Source: Candidatus Woesearchaeota archaeon
GTDB lineage: Archaea > Nanobdellota > Nanobdellia > SCGC-AAA011-G17 > CAYFGV01
Direction: 5' to 3'
Length of the DNA stretch: 64,000 bases
Assembly (NCBI GenBank): GCA_964452525.1
Contig: CAYVLZ010000005.1
Location: forward strand, 6,979 to 70,978
The notes below the pieces were generated by a model. The model was given only the letters and a program-made list of their open reading frames with translations. It was not told the origin of the DNA and searched no databases. This document shows positions 820-57,431 of the stretch, in pieces; positions within the stretch are counted from its first letter, which is position 1, and each line of letters opens with the position of its first letter. Made by a program: the position numbers and the translations under genes.

Positions 820-1371
820 ATGGCTAAGAAGAAACAGAAAGGTAAAAATAAGAAATTTGATATAATGTTTAGTGGAGAGAGAATCATTGCCGAAGATAGA
901 GGGGAAGCTACTGAATTGTATAATCAGGGGAGATTTGGAGAGTTAAAAGAAGGAAAAATTCAGTATAGTCTTGTTGAGGCCCTATTTCTTTTAGAAAAAG
1001 AAAGAGCTAAGATTTTAGATGGTAGAAAGAAACAACTAGATTTTGAAAGTTTTATTAGGAAAGCTAAGAGATATGAACCAAGGTTTTGGGTGAAATATTG
1101 TGTCTATAGAGATATGAGAAGTAGGGGGTATATTGTTAAAACTGCTTTGAAATTTGGAGCAGATTTTAGAGTTTATGACAGGGGTGTTAAGCCAGGAGAA
1201 GATCATGCTCGTTGGGTTCTTTATCCTGTTCATGAAAGCGAGGTAATGACCTGGTATGATTTTGCTGCCAAGAATAGAGTTGCACACAGTACTAGGAAGA
1301 GACTTTTACTTGGGATAGTTGATGATGAAAATGATTGTACTTTCTATGAGGTTGCTTGGACTAGGCCCTAA
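820..1371 (+). CDS. endA: tRNA-splicing (intron) endonuclease EndA, homotetramer-type, about 183 aa
   Basis: The ORF track gives 739..1371. The in-frame MAKKKQ at 820 avoids overlapping the rnz start. Motifs: YRDMRSRGYIVKTALKFGADFRVYDRG and HARWVLYPV (catalytic Tyr/His/Lys region of archaeal EndA). Confidence 0.85.
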   Translation: MAKKKQKGKNKKFDIMFSGERIIAEDRGEATELYNQGRFGELKEGKIQYSLVEALFLLEKERAKILDGRKKQLDFESFIRKAKRYEPRFWVKYCVYRDMRSRGYIVKTALKFGADFRVYDRGVKPGEDHARWVLYPVHESEVMTWYDFAAKNRVAHSTRKRLLLGIVDDENDCTFYEVAWTRP

Positions 1372-20313: not shown

Positions 20314-20421
20314 TGGAGCCGGTGGGATTTGAACCCACGACACCTAGATGGCTGCTCTTGGAGATCTTCAGTTTCACTTACTTTTGGAGTAGCTAGTGCT
20401 CTCCCCCTGAGCTACGGCTCC
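20314..20421 (-). tRNA. Intron-containing tRNA gene (about 108 nt; roughly 36-nt insertion in the anticodon-arm region). Anticodon uncertain; candidate CCA (Trp). CCA end not encoded
   Basis: Reverse complement GGAGCCG-UA-GCUC-AGGGGGA-GAGC-A-CUAGC...UCUAG-GUGUC-GUGGG-UUCAAAU-CCCAC-CGGCUCC-A. Acceptor, D-arm and T-arm (GUGGG/UUCAAAU/CCCAC) are canonical. The intervening 43 nt contain two CUCCAA copies (a C-U-CCA-A-A loop would be Trp), but I could not fold a clean 5-bp anticodon stem by hand. Confidence 0.7.
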
Positions 20422-44190: not shown

Positions 44191-44228
44191 ACAAAAACTT
44201 AAAAAGGGAATTCTTTTACTTCTTAATA

Positions 44229-44361
44229 TGCCGAGGTCGCATAACCTGGTATTGCGCAGAATCTTTTTGAGAAAAAGTTTCATCAAAAAGGTGCGTAAGC
44301 CTTGAATATGCGAGTAAGCCTGTTTCCTTCGGGATATCTGGGTTCGAATCCCAGCCTCGGC
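44229..44361 (+). tRNA. Intron-containing tRNA gene, 133 nt (about 55-60 nt of insertion). Type-II-like features; identity unresolved (Ser/Leu candidates)
   Basis: GCCGAGG-UC-GCA-UAACCUGGUAU-UGC... (3-bp D stem, 11-nt D loop with GG)...CUGGG-UUCGAAU-CCCAG-CCUCGGC-G with canonical T-arm and acceptor. A UUCC-UUCG-GGAU hairpin precedes the T-stem (variable-arm-like). Internal CUUUUU/AAAAAG hairpin and duplicated GCG(A)UAAGCCU(U)G segments. Confidence 0.7.
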
Positions 44362-44370
44362 GTTTGTTGT

Positions 44371-45147
44371 TTAGTTATTCTTTTGCATATTGTAAAAGAA
44401 TTCGAAATTGTTATCGGGGGAGGCGTGGTATATATCTAAGTAAGGAGAATATGTTTTAACTTCTACTTTGTTGTCTTCTGGATAAAAGGTCATAATTCTC
44501 AACCATCCGTTTCCACCATTTTCATAGGCTTGATAATTTGATAGGATTTGATGTACTTCGTTGCCTTCTTCTCCCAATGTTTTTAGATAAGCCGTTCCCA
44601 AAGGTTTATCTACATGTCCGCTAAGTACTAAGAATATATTTTTGTTATTTCTTATTAATTCACGCCATATTAGTTCTCCATGGTTTCTGCAAGTAGGTTT
44701 AACTAATGGATCTCCACCATCTATTCTAGTATTGTCGTAATTCATGTACATATGAGTTACAATAATCACTCTTTTATTGATATTTTCTTTTAAAATATTG
44801 TCTGCCCATTCCAAGATTTCATCTCTTGGACAATACTCTAAATGGAAAATTAAGAAATCTTTGTCTTCAATTGAGAATGTTTGATATGTGTTATCTATTG
44901 TATTATCATAACTTCCTCCCCACCAATCTTTTTTATTATAATCTTGTATCTTAAAATATTTGTTGAGGTAATTGGAGTTTCTTCCATCTGTCCAATTAAA
45001 CTCTATGTCATGATTTCCTGGACTTATTGCATAGGGTATGTTGGCTTTATCTAGAATTTCCATGCTTTTTTTGGCTAGTTCCCATTGACTATCGTTGTTA
45101 TAATCTTCTACTATGTCTCCTAGATGGGTGACGAATTTTATATTCAA
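44371..45147 (-). CDS. Calcineurin-like metallophosphoesterase; N-terminus extends upstream of the listed ATG without a canonical start
   Basis: Motifs HLGDIVED (GDxxD), GNHD, VTHMY, SGHVDKP. The same frame stays open upstream to about 45270 and encodes ...ILIFIIITIVLINQNPLRRILQPSATIIVLPDTQKYT (motif I D-x-Q plus a signal-anchor-like segment) with no in-frame ATG/GTG/TTG. Confidence 0.6.
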   Translation of the reverse strand: MNIKFVTHLGDIVEDYNNDSQWELAKKSMEILDKANIPYAISPGNHDIEFNWTDGRNSNYLNKYFKIQDYNKKDWWGGSYDNTIDNTYQTFSIEDKDFLIFHLEYCPRDEILEWADNILKENINKRVIIVTHMYMNYDNTRIDGGDPLVKPTCRNHGELIWRELIRNNKNIFLVLSGHVDKPLGTAYLKTLGEEGNEVHQILSNYQAYENGGNGWLRIMTFYPEDNKVEVKTYSPYLDIYHASPDNNFEFFYNMQKNN

Positions 45148-49448: not shown

Positions 49449-50942
49449 TCACTTTATTTTTATTGTTTCTTTAACAAAACTTTTTGCATAATTTAAGTTG
49501 GTTTTGTTGTCAGAATATATCGTAAATAGTTTGTGCCCTTTATTTACCTTATCTTTTGTTTTTACGTATAGATATATTCCGGCTTCTTTGTCCTGAGGAG
49601 ATCCGGCAATTCTTGCAATCTTATTTATTTTTTTTATATCTATTGAACTAATGATTCCGGTTTTGCTCGCTTTGACTGTATGGGAAAATTTTCCTATTCT
49701 TAATTGTGAGGGTAGGATGTTGGGGTTTCCTTCTTGTGCTTTAATTATTTCCTTCATCCTTTTGTAGGCAAGACCTGAATCTAAAATACTTTTAACAAGA
49801 GTTTCTGATTTTTTTATCCCAACCATTTTTAAGATTATGCTAGCCATCTTGATGGATTTTCTTTCTAAGTCTTTTGGCGCTTTTTCATCTCTTTTTAATA
49901 TGTAAAGTACGTCTCTGGCTTCTAGGTTCGGACCTATTCCGTTTCCTATTGGTTGTGAACCATCTGTTAGTATTACTTTTATCTTTATACCTAATCTTCT
50001 CCCTATTCTTTTGAATTTTAATTTTAGTCTCTTGCCTTCTCTTATTGATTTTATTTTAGAATCTTTTCCGATTGGTAAATCTATTAGTACATGGGTTGCA
50101 TTAACTGCAGCTTTTTTTGCAAGTATACTGCTAATTAACATTGCTTCTGGGTCTAAGCTTAGAGAATGTCTTACTTTTATGAGTTTGTCATCTGCGCTTG
50201 CTAATTCTATTGCACCTCCCCATGCTATAAAGGCGTTTGTTTTTTTGATTATTTTTTTTAATTTTTTAATCGGCAAGTTTACTTTTGCTAAACTTTCCAT
50301 GGTGTCTGCGGTCCCGCTCGCAGAAGTTATGCTTCTTGAACTTGTTTTGGGAATGGTTAGATTGGCTGCAGCTAGAATTGGTACTACTATCATAGTTGTT
50401 CTATTTCCTGGAATTCCTCCAGAACAATGTTTGTCTACTATTATCTTTCTATTAATCTTTATTTGAGAGCCATTTTTAACTATGGCTTTTGTTAGGTAGG
50501 TAATTTCTCTTTCATCTAGCCCATGATTATAACAAGCAGAAACAAAATATGCTAGTTCTATTTCTGTTAGTTCGTTTGCTACTAGATCTTTCACTATAAT
50601 ATTGATCTCTTTTTCATTTAATTTTTTACCTTCAAGTTTTTTCTTTATCAATTCTATAGATTCTGGTATTGTTACTGGGAAGATTTTTACTTTTTGTTTA
50701 TCTTTAACTTTTAAAATATCTAGAACTTCTTCAAACAATCCTATTTTTCCTTTTTTAATGCCCTTGTCACTCTCTGATATATCTACTGCTGCTATTATTT
50801 GTTTTTTTCCTTTTTTTATCTTTATTCTATCCAATGCTTGGAGATCTAGTTTTTCTGCATCTTTATAGTTGAGTATTACTATTAACGGACCTCCAGAAGA
50901 GATATCTACGTCTTTAACTTTTAATAACATTTTTTTCCTCAT
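49449..50942 (-). CDS. deoA: AMP phosphorylase (thymidine-phosphorylase family, archaeal DeoA type)
   Basis: N-terminal extension characteristic of AMPpase, then the nucleoside-phosphorylase-II core HCSGGIPGNRTTMIVVPILAAANLTIPKTSSRSITSASGTADTMESLA; 497 aa. Confidence 0.8.
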   Translation of the reverse strand: MRKKMLLKVKDVDISSGGPLIVILNYKDAEKLDLQALDRIKIKKGKKQIIAAVDISESDKGIKKGKIGLFEEVLDILKVKDKQKVKIFPVTIPESIELIKKKLEGKKLNEKEINIIVKDLVANELTEIELAYFVSACYNHGLDEREITYLTKAIVKNGSQIKINRKIIVDKHCSGGIPGNRTTMIVVPILAAANLTIPKTSSRSITSASGTADTMESLAKVNLPIKKLKKIIKKTNAFIAWGGAIELASADDKLIKVRHSLSLDPEAMLISSILAKKAAVNATHVLIDLPIGKDSKIKSIREGKRLKLKFKRIGRRLGIKIKVILTDGSQPIGNGIGPNLEARDVLYILKRDEKAPKDLERKSIKMASIILKMVGIKKSETLVKSILDSGLAYKRMKEIIKAQEGNPNILPSQLRIGKFSHTVKASKTGIISSIDIKKINKIARIAGSPQDKEAGIYLYVKTKDKVNKGHKLFTIYSDNKTNLNYAKSFVKETIKIK

Positions 50943-51921
50943 AGAATTTGAAGAAAGTGATAGTCAATGCTAATATTAAAGGACCGATTATAACACCCAC
51001 TAAGCCGAACATTTTTATCCCTCCTACTAATCCTAGTAAGACAATTATTGGATGTATCTTGATCTTTGAGCTTATTAATCGAGGTTTTATTACATTATCC
51101 ACAGAGCTGATTATTATTGTACCATAGATTAGGAGCAGGATACCATTTATTACGTTTCCAGTGAATAATAAATATATTCCTGCTGGAACCCAGATCAAAA
51201 ATGGACCCACGATGGGAAGTATGGACATTGTGGCCATTACCACACCCCAGAACAAAGCGTTTGAAATACCAAATATTTTGAAACCTATTGCTCCCGCTAT
51301 TCCCTGTGCTATTCCAGCTACGATTAGACCAAATATAACAGACTTTGTAACTACGGCAAATTCTTTTATGACCTCTTCTTTATGTTTATTGTCTACAGGT
51401 AAAACTCTCTTTAATGTTTCTAGTAGATTTTCTTTGTCCTTAAGAACGTAGAAGAATGTAAACAGTATTACGAAGAGGGAGAATAACTTTCTTGGTATTG
51501 ATAATAAGAATTCTGGTATGGTTCCTGTTATTATATTAGTGATCTCTGATCTTGCTTCAGAAATATAGGTGCTGACGTCTATCCTGCTTCCTATTACCGA
51601 ACTTATTGCGTTAGATATCTCAGCTTCATCAATAGATCTTATTGAAGAATAAATGTTGAAGACCTCTTTTAATAATATGTTTGCTGCGAATATTGCTGGA
51701 ATTAATATTAAGATTATTAGAATAATTAACATTACGTAAGATGTTATTTTTTTATTTTTTATTTTTTTGTTCAGTTTTTTGAATAGTGGATAGAAGACGA
51801 AAGCTAATACTATTGCGGTTAGTACTGCATTTATGAAAGGGAGAATTATTTTAAATGATAAAATTATGAGTAATACTAACAATGCTAGAAAGAAATATTT
51901 TCTATGATTTCTGTTTTTCAT
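50914..51921 (-). CDS. AI-2E (PerM/UPF0118) family transporter
   Basis: 8 TM helices; C-terminal conserved pattern ...GPFLIWVPAGIYLLFTGNVINGILLLIYGTIIISSVDNVIKPRLIS typical of the family. Confidence 0.55.
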   Translation of the reverse strand: MKNRNHRKYFFLALLVLLIILSFKIILPFINAVLTAIVLAFVFYPLFKKLNKKIKNKKITSYVMLIILIILILIPAIFAANILLKEVFNIYSSIRSIDEAEISNAISSVIGSRIDVSTYISEARSEITNIITGTIPEFLLSIPRKLFSLFVILFTFFYVLKDKENLLETLKRVLPVDNKHKEEVIKEFAVVTKSVIFGLIVAGIAQGIAGAIGFKIFGISNALFWGVVMATMSILPIVGPFLIWVPAGIYLLFTGNVINGILLLIYGTIIISSVDNVIKPRLISSKIKIHPIIVLLGLVGGIKMFGLVGVIIGPLILALTITFFKFYEEKNVIKS

Positions 51922-51997
51922 ACTACCTTTTTGGATTATGGTTATAAAAGCTTTTTGTTTACGCTGGTGTAGAAATGTTTATAAAAAACTTTGACTT

Positions 51998-52342
51998 GTG
52001 TTTACTATGGTTCCTACTATAGTTGGTTTTGTCGAGAAAGTTAGAATAGCAGATAAGCAAATAATGGCTAGAGTAGATACTGGAGCTACAATTAGTTCGA
52101 TAAACAAGACTTTGGTGGATAGCCTTGGTCTAGGGCCTGTTGTTAGAACTACTAAGGTTGCTAGTGCTCAAGGAAAGCAGGTTAGGCCGATTGTCATAGT
52201 TGATTTAGAAATTGCAGGGAAGAATCTTAAAGCAGAGTTTAGTGTAGCTAATAGGGACCACATGGAATATCAGATATTGATAGGAAGGAACATCCTGAAG
52301 CATGGTTTTTTGATTGATCCTAGGAAGGAATTTAAAAAATGA
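51998..52342 (+). CDS. Retropepsin-like aspartic protease (RimK-associated type)
   Basis: ARVDTGATISSIN contains the D-T/S-G-A catalytic motif; 114 aa; ATGA overlap with the downstream ATP-grasp gene. Confidence 0.65.
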   Translation: MFTMVPTIVGFVEKVRIADKQIMARVDTGATISSINKTLVDSLGLGPVVRTTKVASAQGKQVRPIVIVDLEIAGKNLKAEFSVANRDHMEYQILIGRNILKHGFLIDPRKEFKK

Positions 52343-53412
52343 AAGTGGCGCTGATTGGTTTGGGAGGAGATACTACTAAGTCAATAATCAGAGAATGTAT
52401 CGGATACTTCAAGAAGGCAGATTTTTTAGATATAAGGAAATTAAAGTTACATATAAGTTCTGATAGCGTTGAGGTATTTTATGATGATAATAATCTTGAG
52501 GATTATGATTGCGTTTATTGTAGAGGAAGTCATAAATATGCCTTGTTGTTGACGGGGATTACGGAGGCTTTAAATAGCAAATGTTATATGCCTGTCTCTA
52601 GTAACGCTTTTTTAGCTTGCCATAATAAATTTTTAACTTCTATGGAACTTCAAAAGGCCAATATTCTTATGCCTAGGACTTTCTTGGCATCTAATAGTAA
52701 TGCTGCTAAGAAGATTTTAGAAGAGATCCACTACCCTGTTATTATTAAAATACCTAGTGGAACTCATGGAAAAGGTGTAATGTTTGCTGATAGTAGGAGT
52801 AGTGCTAAGAGCGTCATAGACACCTTAGAAGTTTTTAATCAATCCTATATCATACAGGAATATGTTGAAACTGATGCTACAGATATAAGGGCGGTAGTTC
52901 TTGGAGATAGGGTTATTTCTGCTATGAAAAGAAAAGCTGCTAAAGATGAATTAAGAGCTAATCTCCACATGGGAGGAATGGGAATTGCTACCAATGTTAG
53001 TGAGGAAGTAGAGAGATTGGCTGTAAGGTCTGCAAAGGCCTTAGGTCTTGATATTTGCGCTGTTGATCTACTAGAGGGAGCTAAAACAAGCGTTTTAGAA
53101 GTTAATGTTAGTCCAGGTCTTAGGGGGATAAGTGAAGTTACTAAAAGAAATATAGCTAGAGATGTTGCTAAATTTTTATATGATAAAACTTGTAATTTTA
53201 AAAACATTAAAAAGAAAGAAGGATATGATGACATAATTAATGGTTTAGATAAGAAGATTAACAATCAGTTTCTGTCTAACCTAGATATAAAATTAGGTAG
53301 GATAAGATTGCCGGGAGCAGCCACTAAGTTAAGTGGTTTAACTGAGCATGACGAAGTTATGATTAAGGCTGATAGAGGAAAGATAATTATAACTAAGTCA
53401 GATGTTAAATGA
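52339..53412 (+). CDS. RimK-family ATP-grasp ligase (alpha-L-glutamate ligase-like) with about 90-aa C-terminal extension
   Basis: ATP-grasp core YPVIIKIPSGTHGKGVMFA...IIQEYVE...DIRAVVLGDRVISAMKRKA...LHMGG...AVDLLEG...VLEVNVSPGL. Confidence 0.7.
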   Translation: MKVALIGLGGDTTKSIIRECIGYFKKADFLDIRKLKLHISSDSVEVFYDDNNLEDYDCVYCRGSHKYALLLTGITEALNSKCYMPVSSNAFLACHNKFLTSMELQKANILMPRTFLASNSNAAKKILEEIHYPVIIKIPSGTHGKGVMFADSRSSAKSVIDTLEVFNQSYIIQEYVETDATDIRAVVLGDRVISAMKRKAAKDELRANLHMGGMGIATNVSEEVERLAVRSAKALGLDICAVDLLEGAKTSVLEVNVSPGLRGISEVTKRNIARDVAKFLYDKTCNFKNIKKKEGYDDIINGLDKKINNQFLSNLDIKLGRIRLPGAATKLSGLTEHDEVMIKADRGKIIITKSDVK

Positions 53413-53448
53413 AAAGATTTTTAAATCATTAACTTTCTGCTCTTTAAG

Positions 53449-54138
53449 ATGAAAGTTGCAATTTTGTTTAGCGGAGGAAAAGATTCTGTTAATGCTGTAG
53501 CTTTAGCTAAAGAAAAAGGATGGGATATTGATTATTTGCTTAGTGTTAAGCCTTCTAGAACAGATTGTTATTTGTTTCATTACGCTACTGTTGAATATAC
53601 TAAAGAGTTAGCTGAAATATTTGGTTTAAAGCATATATTAACTGGATGTGATGTAGCTGATCCTGAGAAGGAAGCAGAAATTATTAAAAATATTGTCAAA
53701 GATAATCCAGTTGATGCTGTTGTACTTGGAGGTGTTGGACTTCAGGAAACTCAGATCAATAGCATTAGAAAAGCTTTGAGTTCTTTAGGAGTAGAAGTTT
53801 TTGCTAGTCATGCTGAAGAAGATTCTTTAAAGTTGATGAATGAGATGATAAAGAATGGTTATGAGATTGTGATTACCGAGATAGCTTCTGATGGATTAAC
53901 TGAAGAACATATAGGTTTAAAGTTAGATGCTGAGAACTTCCCAAAATTTGTTGAATTGTCTAGAAAATATGGCTTTGAGGTTTTGGGAGAAGGTGGATAC
54001 TATAACACCTTGGTTGTAGATGGTCCTATTTTTGATAAAAGATTAGAAATTATTGACTCTGAGAAAGTTATGGAATCTGAAAATGTTGGATATCTAAAAG
54101 TGAATCAAGTTAAGATGTCTAAAAAAGTCATTCAATAG
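53449..54138 (+). CDS. Diphthine-ammonia ligase-like PP-loop ATPase (Dph6/MJ0570 family)
   Basis: VAILFSGGKDS PP-loop; about 229 aa alpha/beta ATP-pyrophosphatase domain. Confidence 0.6.
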   Translation: MKVAILFSGGKDSVNAVALAKEKGWDIDYLLSVKPSRTDCYLFHYATVEYTKELAEIFGLKHILTGCDVADPEKEAEIIKNIVKDNPVDAVVLGGVGLQETQINSIRKALSSLGVEVFASHAEEDSLKLMNEMIKNGYEIVITEIASDGLTEEHIGLKLDAENFPKFVELSRKYGFEVLGEGGYYNTLVVDGPIFDKRLEIIDSEKVMESENVGYLKVNQVKMSKKVIQ

Positions 54139-54685
54139 GGTCCACTTCATATAATTCTTGTCCATACTCTACGGGTTCTCCATTTTCAACTTCTACTTTT
54201 TTAATTTTTGCCTTATTGACTTTTTCTGATACTCTGTAATCTTCTGGTTCTATTTCTTCGTAGAAACAAGTTCCCAGGTTTACGTTTCTTCTTTCCTCCG
54301 GTTTTACTAATTTTACTTCGTTTGGTATTTTGAGAGCTTCTATTATTCCTATTGTGTCTCCAATCGATACTTCTTCTCCTTCTTCTATAGATATTCCAAG
54401 TATTTTATCAAATCTATAAAAGGTTCCTACTGAGGGGGATAAAATAAAATATCTATTTACTTTTCCTTCTAGATTTTCTTCATCACTCTTTATTGTTAAT
54501 TTTTCATTTTTTTTGTCTTTAACCATTGTTATTTTTAAGTTTATTTTGGATAGTGCCGGGATTATTTTTCCTTTATAATCTAGATACACCTCATGACCTT
54601 TTTCTTTTTGTTCTTCTAATAATTCTAGTAATTTGTTTAAATAATGCTTTCCAGATAGATATTCTTTTATAAGTTCAAAGCCCAT
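54128..54685 (-). CDS. Protein with C-terminal biotinyl/lipoyl-like hybrid-barrel domain
   Basis: SPSVGTFYRF...EEGEEVSIGDTIGIIEALKIPNEVK resembles biotin/lipoyl attachment domains (GD..IEAMK) but lacks the AMKM biotinylation motif. Confidence 0.45.
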   Translation of the reverse strand: MGFELIKEYLSGKHYLNKLLELLEEQKEKGHEVYLDYKGKIIPALSKINLKITMVKDKKNEKLTIKSDEENLEGKVNRYFILSPSVGTFYRFDKILGISIEEGEEVSIGDTIGIIEALKIPNEVKLVKPEERRNVNLGTCFYEEIEPEDYRVSEKVNKAKIKKVEVENGEPVEYGQELYEVDPIE

Positions 54686-54729
54686 CTGCTTTGGTATCTT
54701 TTCAAACTATATAAATATTAAGAAAATTT

Positions 54730-55992
54730 TTATAATCCCCATTTTTTAATTGCTGTTTTTAGTTCTGGATGCGACTGTGCGTACTTCTTTAGAGTTATGT
54801 TCTGTAGTGATGCGTCTAGAGCTTGTTTAATTGCTTTTGCACCTTCTTTTGGCCCTCTGGGATGTCCGAATAAACCCCCCCCAAATTGGCATATTATGTC
54901 GTTTCCAAGGTATTTCATAAGTTTGGGTATTTGTGTTGGATATAAACCTCCGCTGCAAATTGCGAAAGTTGGTTTGATGTGATGCCAATTTTCAGCTAGA
55001 GTGTGGTTTGCTTCATCTTCCTTTATTATTTTCTTTTCTATTTCTTCTCCTATGTGCTGAACCTCTCTTTTACTTCCGGACATTTTTCCTATTATTGTGC
55101 CTATGTGGAGTTGGTCTATCCCTAATAATCTTGAAACATCAGCTATTACTAACATTGATACTCCGTGTTTGGGGTTTCTGGTTATTGCTGCGTGCCCGCT
55201 TCTATGGCCATGAATTATTAATTCTAGATTTTCATCCCTTAATGTTTGTAGAGATGACCAACCAGAAGTTATTATGTCTATCATGCAAAATCTTCCACCA
55301 TTTTCTTCTACAAATTTAGCTCTTTTAATCATTTCTTTAGTTTCTGCTGTTATGTTTGCTACGTAACCTTTTTTTTCTCCCGTTTCCTTTTCTACTTTTT
55401 TTCTCATCTTGAGAGTTAGTTTTACTCTTCTCTTAAATTGGTTAAAATTTAGGTTTCCTAGATTTTCGTCTTCTTTTATCATATCCATTCCGTTTTTCCA
55501 GAGAATGTAAGCGTTTTTAGCCTGTTCTTGAGAAGATAGCCCTACTTTTGGTTTTATTATGCTTCCAATTAGTGGACGTTCATGTACCTTTAGAATTTTT
55601 CTTATTCCAGGAATTCCGTATCTAGGTCCTTTAAAGCTTTTAATTATTTTATAAGGCCATTGTATATCTTCTAATCTCAGATTTTTAATTGCTTTCATAC
55701 CAAAAATGTTCCCTGCAATGCTTGAAAGTATTTGCGGCATATTTCCTTGTTCAAATAGTTGAGAAGGGTAAGCTATTTTTGTCCAGTTGCCTTTTATAGA
55801 GAATACCTTTGCTCCTATTTTTCTTATACTGGGTTTCATGGTTGATATTTTTGTCCAGGTTCCTATAGAAGATTCAGAAGCAATTTTCTCTGAAGCACTC
55901 TTAACACTTAACCCTTTTACGGGTTCTATGTAAAATGAACAGATTAGATCGTTTTGGGTTGGCTTATAATTTAGATTTACATATTTTAACAT
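54730..55992 (-). CDS. rbcL: Ribulose-1,5-bisphosphate carboxylase large subunit, form III (archaeal)
   Basis: SESSIGTWTKISTM (ESSTGTWT motif), GMDMIKEDENL (GLDFTKDDE-type), CQFGGGLFGHPRGPKEGAKA (C-terminal GG..GHP); 420 aa. Confidence 0.85.
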   Translation of the reverse strand: MLKYVNLNYKPTQNDLICSFYIEPVKGLSVKSASEKIASESSIGTWTKISTMKPSIRKIGAKVFSIKGNWTKIAYPSQLFEQGNMPQILSSIAGNIFGMKAIKNLRLEDIQWPYKIIKSFKGPRYGIPGIRKILKVHERPLIGSIIKPKVGLSSQEQAKNAYILWKNGMDMIKEDENLGNLNFNQFKRRVKLTLKMRKKVEKETGEKKGYVANITAETKEMIKRAKFVEENGGRFCMIDIITSGWSSLQTLRDENLELIIHGHRSGHAAITRNPKHGVSMLVIADVSRLLGIDQLHIGTIIGKMSGSKREVQHIGEEIEKKIIKEDEANHTLAENWHHIKPTFAICSGGLYPTQIPKLMKYLGNDIICQFGGGLFGHPRGPKEGAKAIKQALDASLQNITLKKYAQSHPELKTAIKKWGL

Positions 55993-57431
55993 TTTAGCAC
56001 CTTAGGAAGATCTTTTAAAGTTTTAATTATAAAATCTGGATTTTTCTTTTTTAAATTTTTCTTTGGAGTATTTCCACTAAGTACCGCAACAGTTCTTATT
56101 CCAGCTTTTTTTCCAGCTATTATATCATAGATTGAATCGCCTACCATGTAATCAGCTCTGATGTGTAGAAGCTTTTCTGCCCTGAATATCTCATCGGGAG
56201 CTGGCTTTGGTTCTTTTACGTCATCGTAACCGACTATTACATCAAATAAATTTATACTTATTCCTGCTGTGCTTAACAGTATTTCTATTTGCCTATGGGT
56301 GCAGTTTGATACTATAGCAAGTTTGTATTTTTTTCTTAATCTTTTTAGAGTAGACACTACTCCTTTGAAGGGTTTGATGTATTTTTTTGTCTCTTTTATT
56401 AGTATTTTATGCCTATCTTTTCTTATTTTTTCTATTTTTTTCTTCGATAACTTCGGATACAGTTTTTTTATAATCTTTGTTCCTAACATGCCAAACATAC
56501 TTTTAAGTTTTTCTGGATCTGTTTCTGGTAAGTTGTTTTTTTTGAAAGCTTTGTTGTAAGATAGAATATGTGATTTATTTGCATCTAATAAAGTATGGTC
56601 CATATCTAGACATATTAATTCTTTTATGGATTTGTATTCTTTTTTGACTTTTTTAATAAACTCTTTTGGCTTTAGGATTCCTAGTTCAGAGATTATGCCT
56701 GTTATGTGTTTTGGATTTATTATTTCAAAAGCAGGGTTTTTAATTTTTATTTTTCTGGGTGCATTTTTCCAAATCTCTTTGAAATTTCTTTGTTCTATGT
56801 CTACTCTTCTTGGCGAGAATTTCCAAGAGTCTGTTACTATGTAAACGGGAATTTTATGGTGATAAGCTATCTCAGCAAACATTCCCGAGCCTATTTTATT
56901 TATTACGGAGCCATCTGATAGTATAGCATCACAACCTAAAAGAACTAAATTTACTTTTTTCATTGTTTGGCTTTTTTTTAGCGCCACTCCTGCAGCAGAG
57001 TCCACCACTTGTGTTACATCTATTCCTAGTTTAGACAGCTCTTTTGCTGTTTTTCTTCCTTGATATAATGGACGCGTTTCTGTATTAAAAACTTTAAAAT
57101 TCTTACCTTGTTTTTTAGCCTCTTTTAATACTGAAATAACTGTAGAGCTGTGACAATGTGTAAATATTGTTGAATTGTTCTTTATTTTTCTGGTACCGAA
57201 TTTGTTTATTTTTTCTAGTGCTTCATTAAAGTGGTTCAGGGTGGTTTCAATTCCGTAGTCTTCTGCATAATCAAGAGCATTTTTTAGCATAGGTTCTGTG
57301 GGCCTTAAGCTTAGAAGCTTCTTTTTTGAAATCCCCTTTAACTTTAAACATTTAACGGCAGCTTTGGCTATATTCTGTGCACCCTGAATTCTTAAGGTTT
57401 TAATGTCTTTATACAACTTAGAAGTTTGCAT
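55986..57431 (-). CDS. Fusion protein: ribose-1,5-bisphosphate isomerase (eIF2B-like, e2b2) N-domain plus HAD-IA phosphatase C-domain
   Basis: N-terminal about 300 aa eIF-2B alpha/beta/delta-like (TIFTHCHSSTVISVLKEA...VLLGCDAILSDGSVINKIGSGMFAEIAYHHKIPVYIV). C-terminal about 170 aa with HAD motifs ICLDMDHTLLD (DxDxT), IVSNCT, KEPKPAPD, GDSIYDIIAGKKAG. 7-nt overlap with the rbcL start. Confidence 0.7.
   Translation of the reverse strand: MQTSKLYKDIKTLRIQGAQNIAKAAVKCLKLKGISKKKLLSLRPTEPMLKNALDYAEDYGIETTLNHFNEALEKINKFGTRKIKNNSTIFTHCHSSTVISVLKEAKKQGKNFKVFNTETRPLYQGRKTAKELSKLGIDVTQVVDSAAGVALKKSQTMKKVNLVLLGCDAILSDGSVINKIGSGMFAEIAYHHKIPVYIVTDSWKFSPRRVDIEQRNFKEIWKNAPRKIKIKNPAFEIINPKHITGIISELGILKPKEFIKKVKKEYKSIKELICLDMDHTLLDANKSHILSYNKAFKKNNLPETDPEKLKSMFGMLGTKIIKKLYPKLSKKKIEKIRKDRHKILIKETKKYIKPFKGVVSTLKRLRKKYKLAIVSNCTHRQIEILLSTAGISINLFDVIVGYDDVKEPKPAPDEIFRAEKLLHIRADYMVGDSIYDIIAGKKAGIRTVAVLSGNTPKKNLKKKNPDFIIKTLKDLPKVLKC

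Follow-up and report, generated by a model that had tools for sequence, protein, structure and literature searches.

The window analysed here, a 64,000-nucleotide (nt) stretch of contig CAYVLZ010000005.1 from an assembly assigned to a Candidatus Woesearchaeota archaeon (32.7% G+C), carries on its forward strand a 133-nt transfer RNA (tRNA) gene. With high confidence we read it as a functional class-II tRNA-Ser(UGA) gene of a Woesearchaeota-type archaeon of the DPANN superphylum, whose 133-nt precursor contains two introns spliced out by an endonuclease. The gene extends from G1 at 44230 to the discriminator base G73 at 44362, and is preceded by a T at 44229, so that the span of 44229–44361 given in an earlier note on this DNA lay one base too far to the left. 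Between these ends we read an acceptor stem (GCCGAGG/CCUCGGC), a T arm (CUGGG-UUCGAAU-CCCAG), and a D stem of three base pairs (GCA/UGC, with U13 and U22 unpaired at 13:22) closed by a D loop of 11 nt, with U8, A14, G18, G19 and A21 all at their standard tRNA places, and with 82 nt separating the D and T arms. These stems, the D loop and the 82-nt gap had been described in the earlier note, and the other elements it listed are also present, namely a CUUUUU-GAG-AAAAAG hairpin sequence, a second AAAAAG, two GCG(A)UAAGCCU(U)G segments and a CUUGAA(U/A) loop. The 133-nt strand folds far better than shuffled versions of itself (z = -5.85), and the object at this position is real and tRNA-like. The features discussed below are listed in the Table.

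Table. Features of the tRNA-Ser gene, the second tRNA gene and the splicing endonuclease gene, in window coordinates.
Feature	Coordinates	Strand	Description
TATA-like promoter box, CTTAAAAAG	44198..44206	+	About -32 to -24 from G1, read from the sequence; putative promoter role
Exon 1, tRNA positions 1-29	44230..44259	+	Acceptor 5' strand, D arm, G26, C27 A28 G29
Intron 1 central helix H, 5' strand, G24 C25 G26 C27	44254..44257	+	Overlaps D-stem 3' strand; pairs with 44293-44296 (GCGU)
Intron 1, 39 nt, between tRNA positions 29/30, AAUCUUUUUGAGAAAAAGUUUCAUCAAAAAGGUGCGUAA	44260..44298	+	Relaxed HBh' motif
Exon 2, tRNA positions 30-37, GCCUUGAA	44299..44306	+	Anticodon UGA at 44303-44305
Intron 2, 10 nt, canonical 37/38 position, UAUGCGAGUA	44307..44316	+	Relaxed hBH (bulge-helix-loop) motif
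Exon 3, tRNA positions 38-73	44317..44362	+	Anticodon stem 3' strand, long variable arm, T arm, acceptor 3' strand, G73
T-rich tract, TTTGTTGTTTAGTTATTCTTTTGC	44363..44386	+	Probable archaeal terminator, judged from the sequence
Second tRNA	20314-20421	-	Rfam 51.7 bits
Second tRNA, intron 1	20392-20373	-	20 nt at 30/31; central helix CACU/AGUG; bulges AG|C, AA|A
Second tRNA, intron 2	20365-20350	-	16 nt at 37/38; central helix 3/4
EndA tRNA-splicing endonuclease	820..1371	+	Single alpha-type unit, 183 amino acids from M28; mechanical open reading frame starts at 739

The gene is poorly recovered by standard tools. ARAGORN in default mode returned no tRNA across the whole window, while at low stringency it made about 118 calls in the window which were mostly spurious. 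The default Rfam scan at the gathering threshold returned only the second tRNA at 20314–20421 and missed the Ser gene because of Rfam's filters; with permissive filters only, the tRNA model (gathering score 29) matched 44230–44362 at 34.8 bits, reading 75 nt as an insertion where the anticodon arm should be. We therefore enumerated all of the 17-nt anticodon arms (five paired positions, U33 and a purine at position 37) which can be assembled from the 81 nt that separate G26 from the T arm. This exhaustive enumeration produced no single-intron solution that satisfied these requirements, in agreement with the failure of the earlier note to place a single canonical 37/38 intron, and 46 placements with two deletions. 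Among these 46, the predicted Ser(UGA) arrangement is the one which agrees with the relatives described below, and it has one intron at the non-canonical position 29/30 and one at 37/38, so that both of the options suggested earlier (a non-canonical intron position, or two introns) apply at once. The intervening sequence in this arrangement totals 49 nt (39 + 10) instead of the 55–60 nt first estimated, the remainder being the long variable arm UUUCCUUCGGGAUAU.

Removal of the two introns restores an anticodon arm of CAGGC-CU-UGA-AA-GCCUG followed by the variable arm UUUCCUUCGGGAUAU (UUUCC-UUCG-GGAUA-U), and exon 3 ends without an encoded CCA. The 84-nt spliced product is identified as tRNA-Ser(UGA) by ARAGORN with the intron mode off, and its minimum free energy (MFE) structure is a cloverleaf with a long variable arm (-34.2 kcal/mol) in which all of the conserved tRNA positions and every stem are intact. 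It has all of the traits of a class-II tRNA-Ser (a long hairpin variable arm, a 3-bp D stem, unpaired 13:22, G73 and UGA), and a serine identity fits the archaeal identity elements of G73 and a class-II architecture with a long variable-arm hairpin. The type-II and Ser-UGA-like character noticed earlier is thus borne out by the ARAGORN call and by the close match to an intron-less relative (below).

Relatives were collected in two scans. The first covered one genome per species with the exact 3' end of the gene as the query and gave 19 loci, mostly from Woesearchaeota metagenome-assembled genomes, and the second used exon-only anchors to add further genes from metagenomes (loci are numbered L below). 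The closest comparison is provided by Woesearchaeota B29_G15 (L012), which has an intron-less 84-nt tRNA-Ser(UGA) gene identical at 81/84 positions to the predicted spliced product; exon 1 is identical to this gene over its first 27 nt, and the three differences are found at position 37 and in one compensatory pair of the variable arm (U-A to C-G). L020 and L006 are also intron-less tRNA-Ser genes, L002, L008 and L011 have a single anticodon-loop intron of about 14 nt, and L005, L007, L018 and L017 match the window gene in the number and positions of their introns. Over both scans the 29/30 intron was found in 23 distinct genes including that of the window (i.e. in 22 relatives), and all of these except L053 also have the 37/38 intron. 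The 8-nt exon 2 (GCCUKGAR) is present in all of the relatives, ARAGORN identified all 19 of the spliced genes that could be delimited (the window gene plus 18 relatives) as tRNA-Ser(UGA or GGA), and alignment of these with the three intron-less genes yields a single consensus cloverleaf whose acceptor, D, variable and T stems show compensatory changes.

Conservation extends beyond the transcribed region. A TTTATAA/TTTAAAA-type box is found at about -33 to -26 in most of the 21 relatives having enough upstream sequence, and the genes flanking the tRNA in the window (encoding an S-layer-like protein, two hypothetical proteins, a glycosyltransferase, an AMP-phosphorylase-like protein and RuBisCO) have tRNA-adjacent homologues in many of the relative loci, including the intron-less L020. 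These shared flanking genes indicate that the tRNA-Ser loci are positional orthologues which differ in intron content. We regard the gene and its exon–intron architecture as established by these comparisons.

In order to examine the splice sites we used a motif geometry taken from PMC4090602 and from symmetry, in which a 4-bp central helix is formed between exon bases ending two before the 5' cut and intron bases ending two before the 3' cut, and both cuts fall two bases into a 3-nt bulge. For intron 1 the bulges are A28 G29|A on the 5' side and AA|G30 on the 3' side, and the 5' bulge is followed directly by a 10-bp helix h' within the intron (44261–44270 with 44283–44292, AUCUUUUUGA with UCAAAAAGGU). 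A generic scan of the AT-rich 133 nt gives many weak chance matches to the bulge-helix-bulge (BHB) motif; intron 1 is the strongest candidate in the gene, and a long flanking helix is found only at this site (30|69 in gene numbering). Across the 23 genes with this intron (22–48 nt long), all 92 of the 92 cells of the central helix are paired and the bulges AG|A and AA|G are retained in 22. The first six pairs of h' are 87% paired, compared with 42–58% when the partner strand is slid and 52% when it is shuffled (none of 2000 shuffles reached the observed value), with three to six standard pair types in each of these six columns. The motif is therefore both conserved and covarying, and enforcing it on the full precursor costs only 0–0.2 kcal/mol relative to the MFE structure. 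The sequence of the strong internal hairpin proposed in the earlier note (CUUUUU-GAG-AAAAAG) is present, but probably does not represent the relevant fold, as CUUUUU pairs with the second AAAAAG to form h' both in the MFE structure and in the relatives; in L051, which has a homologous intron, a G-C replaces an A-U pair of this long-range helix.

The central helix of intron 2 is formed by C32 U33 U34 G35 (44301–44304) with CGAG (44311–44314) and is completely paired (4/4), its 3' bulge (UA|A38) adjoins the anticodon stem, and the 5' cut (A36 A37|U) is placed in a 6-nt loop. This helix is fully paired in 13 of the 22 genes having intron 2 (window gene included), and the rest, which have UUAUGCAACAGAA-type introns, form only two or three of the pairs. 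At 10 nt the window intron is the shortest in the set and is one base under the range of 11–129 nt quoted in a 2014 review (PMC4090602). The two similar segments noticed earlier can now be understood as the central-helix 3' strand, two bulge bases and the first exon bases at each of the two 3' sites (GCGU-AA/GCCU and CGAG-UA/AGCCU). BHB-type motifs are thus present and conserved in a gene for which their absence had been suggested as a sign of a pseudogene.

A single gene for the tRNA-splicing endonuclease EndA is also present in the window, and translation probably begins at M28 (window 820), as a public collection contains an identical protein of 183 amino acids. It matches the catalytic (PF01974, 2.7e-27) and N-terminal (PF02778, 7.5e-12) Pfam domains and the structures 3IEY_A (1.8e-37) and 1A79 (4.7e-31), with the catalytic Tyr-His-Lys aligned to those of the Methanocaldococcus jannaschii and Nanoarchaeum equitans enzymes, and an acidic L10-like loop (IVDDEND) is retained, in keeping with a homotetramer. 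Many of its closest homologues (63–74% identical) are labelled Woesearchaeota or Nanoarchaeota, as are the tRNA relatives, consistent with the DPANN-type lineage suggested earlier. The gap between the catalytic Tyr and His is nine residues in EndA and in all of its 120 closest homologues, and by alignment it is nine in M. jannaschii and 15 in N. equitans. The same 120 homologues have a C-terminal W-x-R/K-P in common with EndA, and no endonuclease genes were found in the 57 loci we fetched. In a separate sequence from the same organism (L058), a metallo-beta-lactamase-fold protein with RNase Z-type Pfam matches (Lactamase_B_2 and a faint Lactamase_B_4) is encoded at 1058–1951 on the reverse strand, just upstream of and divergent from the EndA gene, and the two may form a small tRNA-processing gene cluster.

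From these observations we infer the following pathway. Transcription from the TATA-like box would produce the 133-nt precursor, and the endonuclease encoded at 820–1371 would cut all four of the proposed bonds; the 5' cut of intron 1, which splits the 5' strand of the anticodon stem, would be made in the 3-nt bulge between the central helix and the 10-bp intron hairpin. The exons of 30, 8 and 46 nt would then be joined, presumably by an RtcB-type ligase, to give the 84-nt tRNA, and CCA would be added after ligation.

Several observations count against two endonuclease-spliced introns, and these mainly concern the motifs and the enzyme. Neither intron has the strict hBHBh' motif: at the 3' site of intron 1 the exon helix beyond the cut is absent in every relative and position 23 never pairs opposite C31, and this one-sided helix identifies the site as the relaxed HBh' form, while the 5' site of intron 2 is inside a 6-nt loop, as in the hBH or bulge-helix-loop form. 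Moving the cuts of intron 2 by one base yields the same or a near-identical product, so that their position is set by motif geometry, and in the unspliced precursor the intron 2 helix forms at a cost of about 10 kcal/mol. EndA has no insertion at either specificity-loop site when compared with the M. jannaschii alpha4 enzyme and so does not belong to the type of enzyme associated with relaxed motifs, and no RtcB-like ligase gene was found among the window open reading frames we scanned.

The cost of the intron 2 helix in the precursor arises because intron 2 (UAUGCGA) pairs perfectly with U8–A14: the seven bases at 44307–44313 are fully complementary to positions 8–14 (UCGCAUA, 44237–44243), which is equalled by 6/500 shuffles. 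When intron 1 is removed in silico, the MFE structure of the 94-nt intermediate is a cloverleaf with the intron 2 bulge-helix-loop in place. Similar results were obtained for 18 genes including that of the window, where the intron 1 helix lies 0–2.6 kcal/mol above the minimum in all cases and the intron 2 helix costs 1.6–15.7 kcal/mol before intron 1 is removed, falling to 0–3.7 kcal/mol afterwards in the genes which have a complete helix. Folding therefore predicts that intron 1 would be removed first, after which the cloverleaf would form and expose the intron 2 motif. We note that L028, L040, L030 and L043 have UUAUGC/U at the start of intron 2, complementary to positions 10–15. We considered and rejected pairing between intron 2 and the D arm as a general rule, as it is significant in the window gene and in some relatives, but complementarity in other relatives follows from the match of the intron to the CUKG anticodon loop.

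Other readings of the gene were weighed against a spliced tRNA-Ser(UGA). ARAGORN run with the -i option reports a tRNA-Lys(CUU) in which a single intron of 39 nt interrupts position 37/38 (given as i(38,39)) and the long variable region lacks structure, a reading which we consider highly improbable: the anticodon stem would contain a G.A mismatch and the variable region would be left with 26 nt unpaired, tRNAs for Lys belong to class I, the long variable-arm hairpin and G73 instead fit an archaeal Ser, and an intron-less relative whose 5' half is identical is clearly a tRNA-Ser(UGA). Furthermore, ARAGORN assigns at least six identities to the two-intron relatives (Val, SeC, Lys, Leu, Ile and Phe, among others), and single-intron calls are therefore unreliable here. 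The CUUUUU-GAG-AAAAAG hairpin might alternatively be taken as the anticodon arm of a tRNA-Leu(GAG) with flanking insertions, as arms of the form UCUUU-UU-GAG-AA-AAAGx are formally allowed in the two-deletion enumeration and Leu tRNAs are also class II. We find this scarcely credible, since it needs deletions of 5 nt and at least 44 nt without BHB motifs, the hairpin is missing from the MFE fold and from most relatives, the loop is GGG in relatives with the homologous intron (L041 and L051), and the Leu discriminator is A73 where this gene has G73.

It is also improbable, though to a lesser degree, that the gene is a decaying pseudogene, i.e. a tRNA-Ser broken by insertions which has lost the capacity to be processed. 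The relaxed form of both motifs and the absence of known broad-specificity loops from the only endonuclease in the window would be in keeping with decay; against this, the conserved tRNA positions and all stems are intact once the introns are taken out, the interrupted architecture is kept in 22 more distinct genes with compensatory changes in both the intron helix and the exons, the promoter box and gene neighbourhood are conserved, a compensatory pair is among the few differences from the intron-less orthologue, and UCA codons are in use (10.6 per 1000). At 39 and 10 nt the introns are far below the catalytic core of about 200 nt or more, with its conserved paired regions, of group I and group II self-splicing introns, and no Rfam intron match was found in the window. 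A box C/D guide RNA within an intron, as in tRNA-Trp, would need C (RUGAUGA) and D (CUGA) boxes on the intron strand; it was likewise considered and rejected, as the sole match was a weak antisense one to snoZ194 (19.1 bits, E = 1.5, gathering score 50) and the intron sequence is not conserved across the relatives.

As a spliced tRNA-Ser(UGA), the gene has documented counterparts. Position 29/30 is a listed non-canonical intron site and hBH and HBh' are known relaxed motifs (PMC4090602), Crenarchaeota, Nanoarchaeota and ARMAN are known to have multiple-intron tRNAs, this intron position and these relaxed motifs (PMC4090602, PMC3239211), and Kaneta et al. found increased tRNA disruption in DPANN genomes, including that of a Woesearchaeote, with tRNA sets which were incompletely predicted (PMC5829648). 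As multi-intron tRNAs and the 29/30 position are already documented, the gene represents a further example of a known phenomenon, and is an ordinary but poorly annotated case. The multi-intron tRNAs of the Thermoproteales and other Crenarchaeota similarly combine canonical and non-canonical introns in one gene with BHB or relaxed HBh'/hBH sites (as cited in PMC4090602, Sugahara 2007 gives introns at 25/26, 37/38 and 56/57 for the Pyrobaculum islandicum tRNA-Pro(UGG)), but these are processed by an (alpha-beta)2 endonuclease with a Crenarchaea-specific loop, whereas here we have a DPANN archaeon and a single alpha unit. In Methanopyrus kandleri the pre-tRNA-Glu(UUC) also has a canonical intron and an HBh' intron, the latter in the D loop (PMC5829648), and the endonuclease lacks specificity loops; however, that enzyme is an alpha-beta heterotetramer, and the canonical intron was removed first and the HBh' site cut poorly, while folding predicts that the non-canonical intron would be removed first here.

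Comparisons within the DPANN are closer. The pre-tRNA-Cys(GCA) of ARMAN-2 (Ca. Micrarchaeum) has a 13-nt hBH or bulge-helix-loop intron at 59/60 which is cut by an epsilon2 endonuclease (PMC3239211, PMC3488258, PMC12397907), and cleavage of this bulge-helix-loop has been demonstrated experimentally (PMC3239211). It resembles intron 2 in being very short and in combining a splice site in a 3-nt bulge with one in a hairpin loop, but it is located in the T loop rather than the anticodon loop, and the three-unit epsilon2 enzyme needs an ARMAN-specific loop to cut it, while the window enzyme has no insertion of such a size. The text accompanying Fig. 7 of PMC5829648 describes disrupted tRNA sets with multiple-intron tRNAs and incomplete predictions, among them those of Ca. 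Woesearchaeota RBG_13_36_6 and Ca. Pacearchaeota RBG_13_33_26, which belong to the same superphylum and probably include the same phylum as the window organism; that text does not describe the tRNA-Ser family interrupted at 29/30 and 37/38. The disruption is put down there to alpha4 enzymes with an 'L3' loop, which the window endonuclease family appears to lack.

More generally, cleavage of relaxed motifs has been linked to loops in the catalytic subunit, including the Crenarchaea-specific loop, the ARMAN-specific loop, and a Nanoarchaeum/ARMAN-2 loop containing the catalytic His (PMC3488258, PMC5829648, PMC12397907). The loop-less EndA therefore seems hard to reconcile with the relaxed-motif introns that the window also carries; as a second subunit may be encoded elsewhere in the genome, we regard this only as a lead. 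Recognition of the substrate by a pair of Arg and Trp residues is typical of the broad-specificity endonuclease types (2019 review, PMC6379350), and the conserved Trp near the C-terminus of EndA is a candidate for the Trp of this pair. This Trp and K70 are also candidates for what replaces the specificity loops. It is conceivable, though on balance doubtful, that the Woesearchaeota single-alpha EndA of about 180 amino acids, loop-less and with this conserved C-terminal Trp, nevertheless cuts HBh' and bulge-helix-loop sites at non-canonical positions, and that a fixed order of intron removal is enforced by the pairing of the introns with both strands of the D stem. If true, this would provide a further structural route to the cleavage of relaxed substrates and an example of folding-gated tRNA maturation. 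The tRNA-Ser and EndA genes of the one window form a matched enzyme–substrate pair with which the specificity-loop rule could be tested in the Woesearchaeota.

The annotation of such genes also has practical consequences. The Ser gene is missed by ARAGORN and Rfam in their default modes and is called Lys(CUU) in the ARAGORN intron mode, and DPANN tRNA inventories built in this way will consequently show false gaps and false isoacceptors, which can mislead inference on codon capacity or host dependence. The conserved and syntenic tRNA-Ser family, with and without the 29/30 and 37/38 introns, provides a natural series for intron gain and loss, although the biological point is modest.

Other arrangements are seen in the wider family. 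In L021/L055, L039 and L051 a third insertion of about 30–40 nt is found inside the T loop after GGUUCAA/GGUUCGA, making these three-intron tRNA-Ser genes. The tRNA-Ser(GGA) gene of Woesearchaeota CG08_land_8_20_14_0_20_47_9 (L010) has a 34-nt insertion in the D loop/stem region (at about 20/21) which replaces the 29/30 intron. Four GC-rich metagenome contigs (L022, L033, L048 and L050) carry tRNA-Ser(GGA) genes with a GCCGGGG acceptor strand and a 29/30 intron whose central helix is GCGC/GCGC; in these there is a one- or two-base shift of the intron helix, and the intron 2 helix is poor (2/4).

The second tRNA gene of the window is probably also miscalled. ARAGORN identifies it as Gly(GCC) with one 38-nt intron, but this needs an A.G mismatch and leaves no position 26, and no strict motif was found for the 38-nt intron, which led us to a two-intron reading in which the gene would encode a perfect 72-nt tRNA-Phe(GAA) whose spliced MFE structure is a cloverleaf. 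The gene content at 49449–57431 and elsewhere in the window is archaeal. The RuBisCO large subunit, an AMP-phosphorylase-like protein and a fusion of an e2B2-like isomerase with a HAD domain together suggest the archaeal AMP/nucleoside-salvage pathway, and AglB/STT3, aRF1, PCNA, Cbf5/TruB, ribosomal protein S19e, CysRS and ValRS are also encoded.

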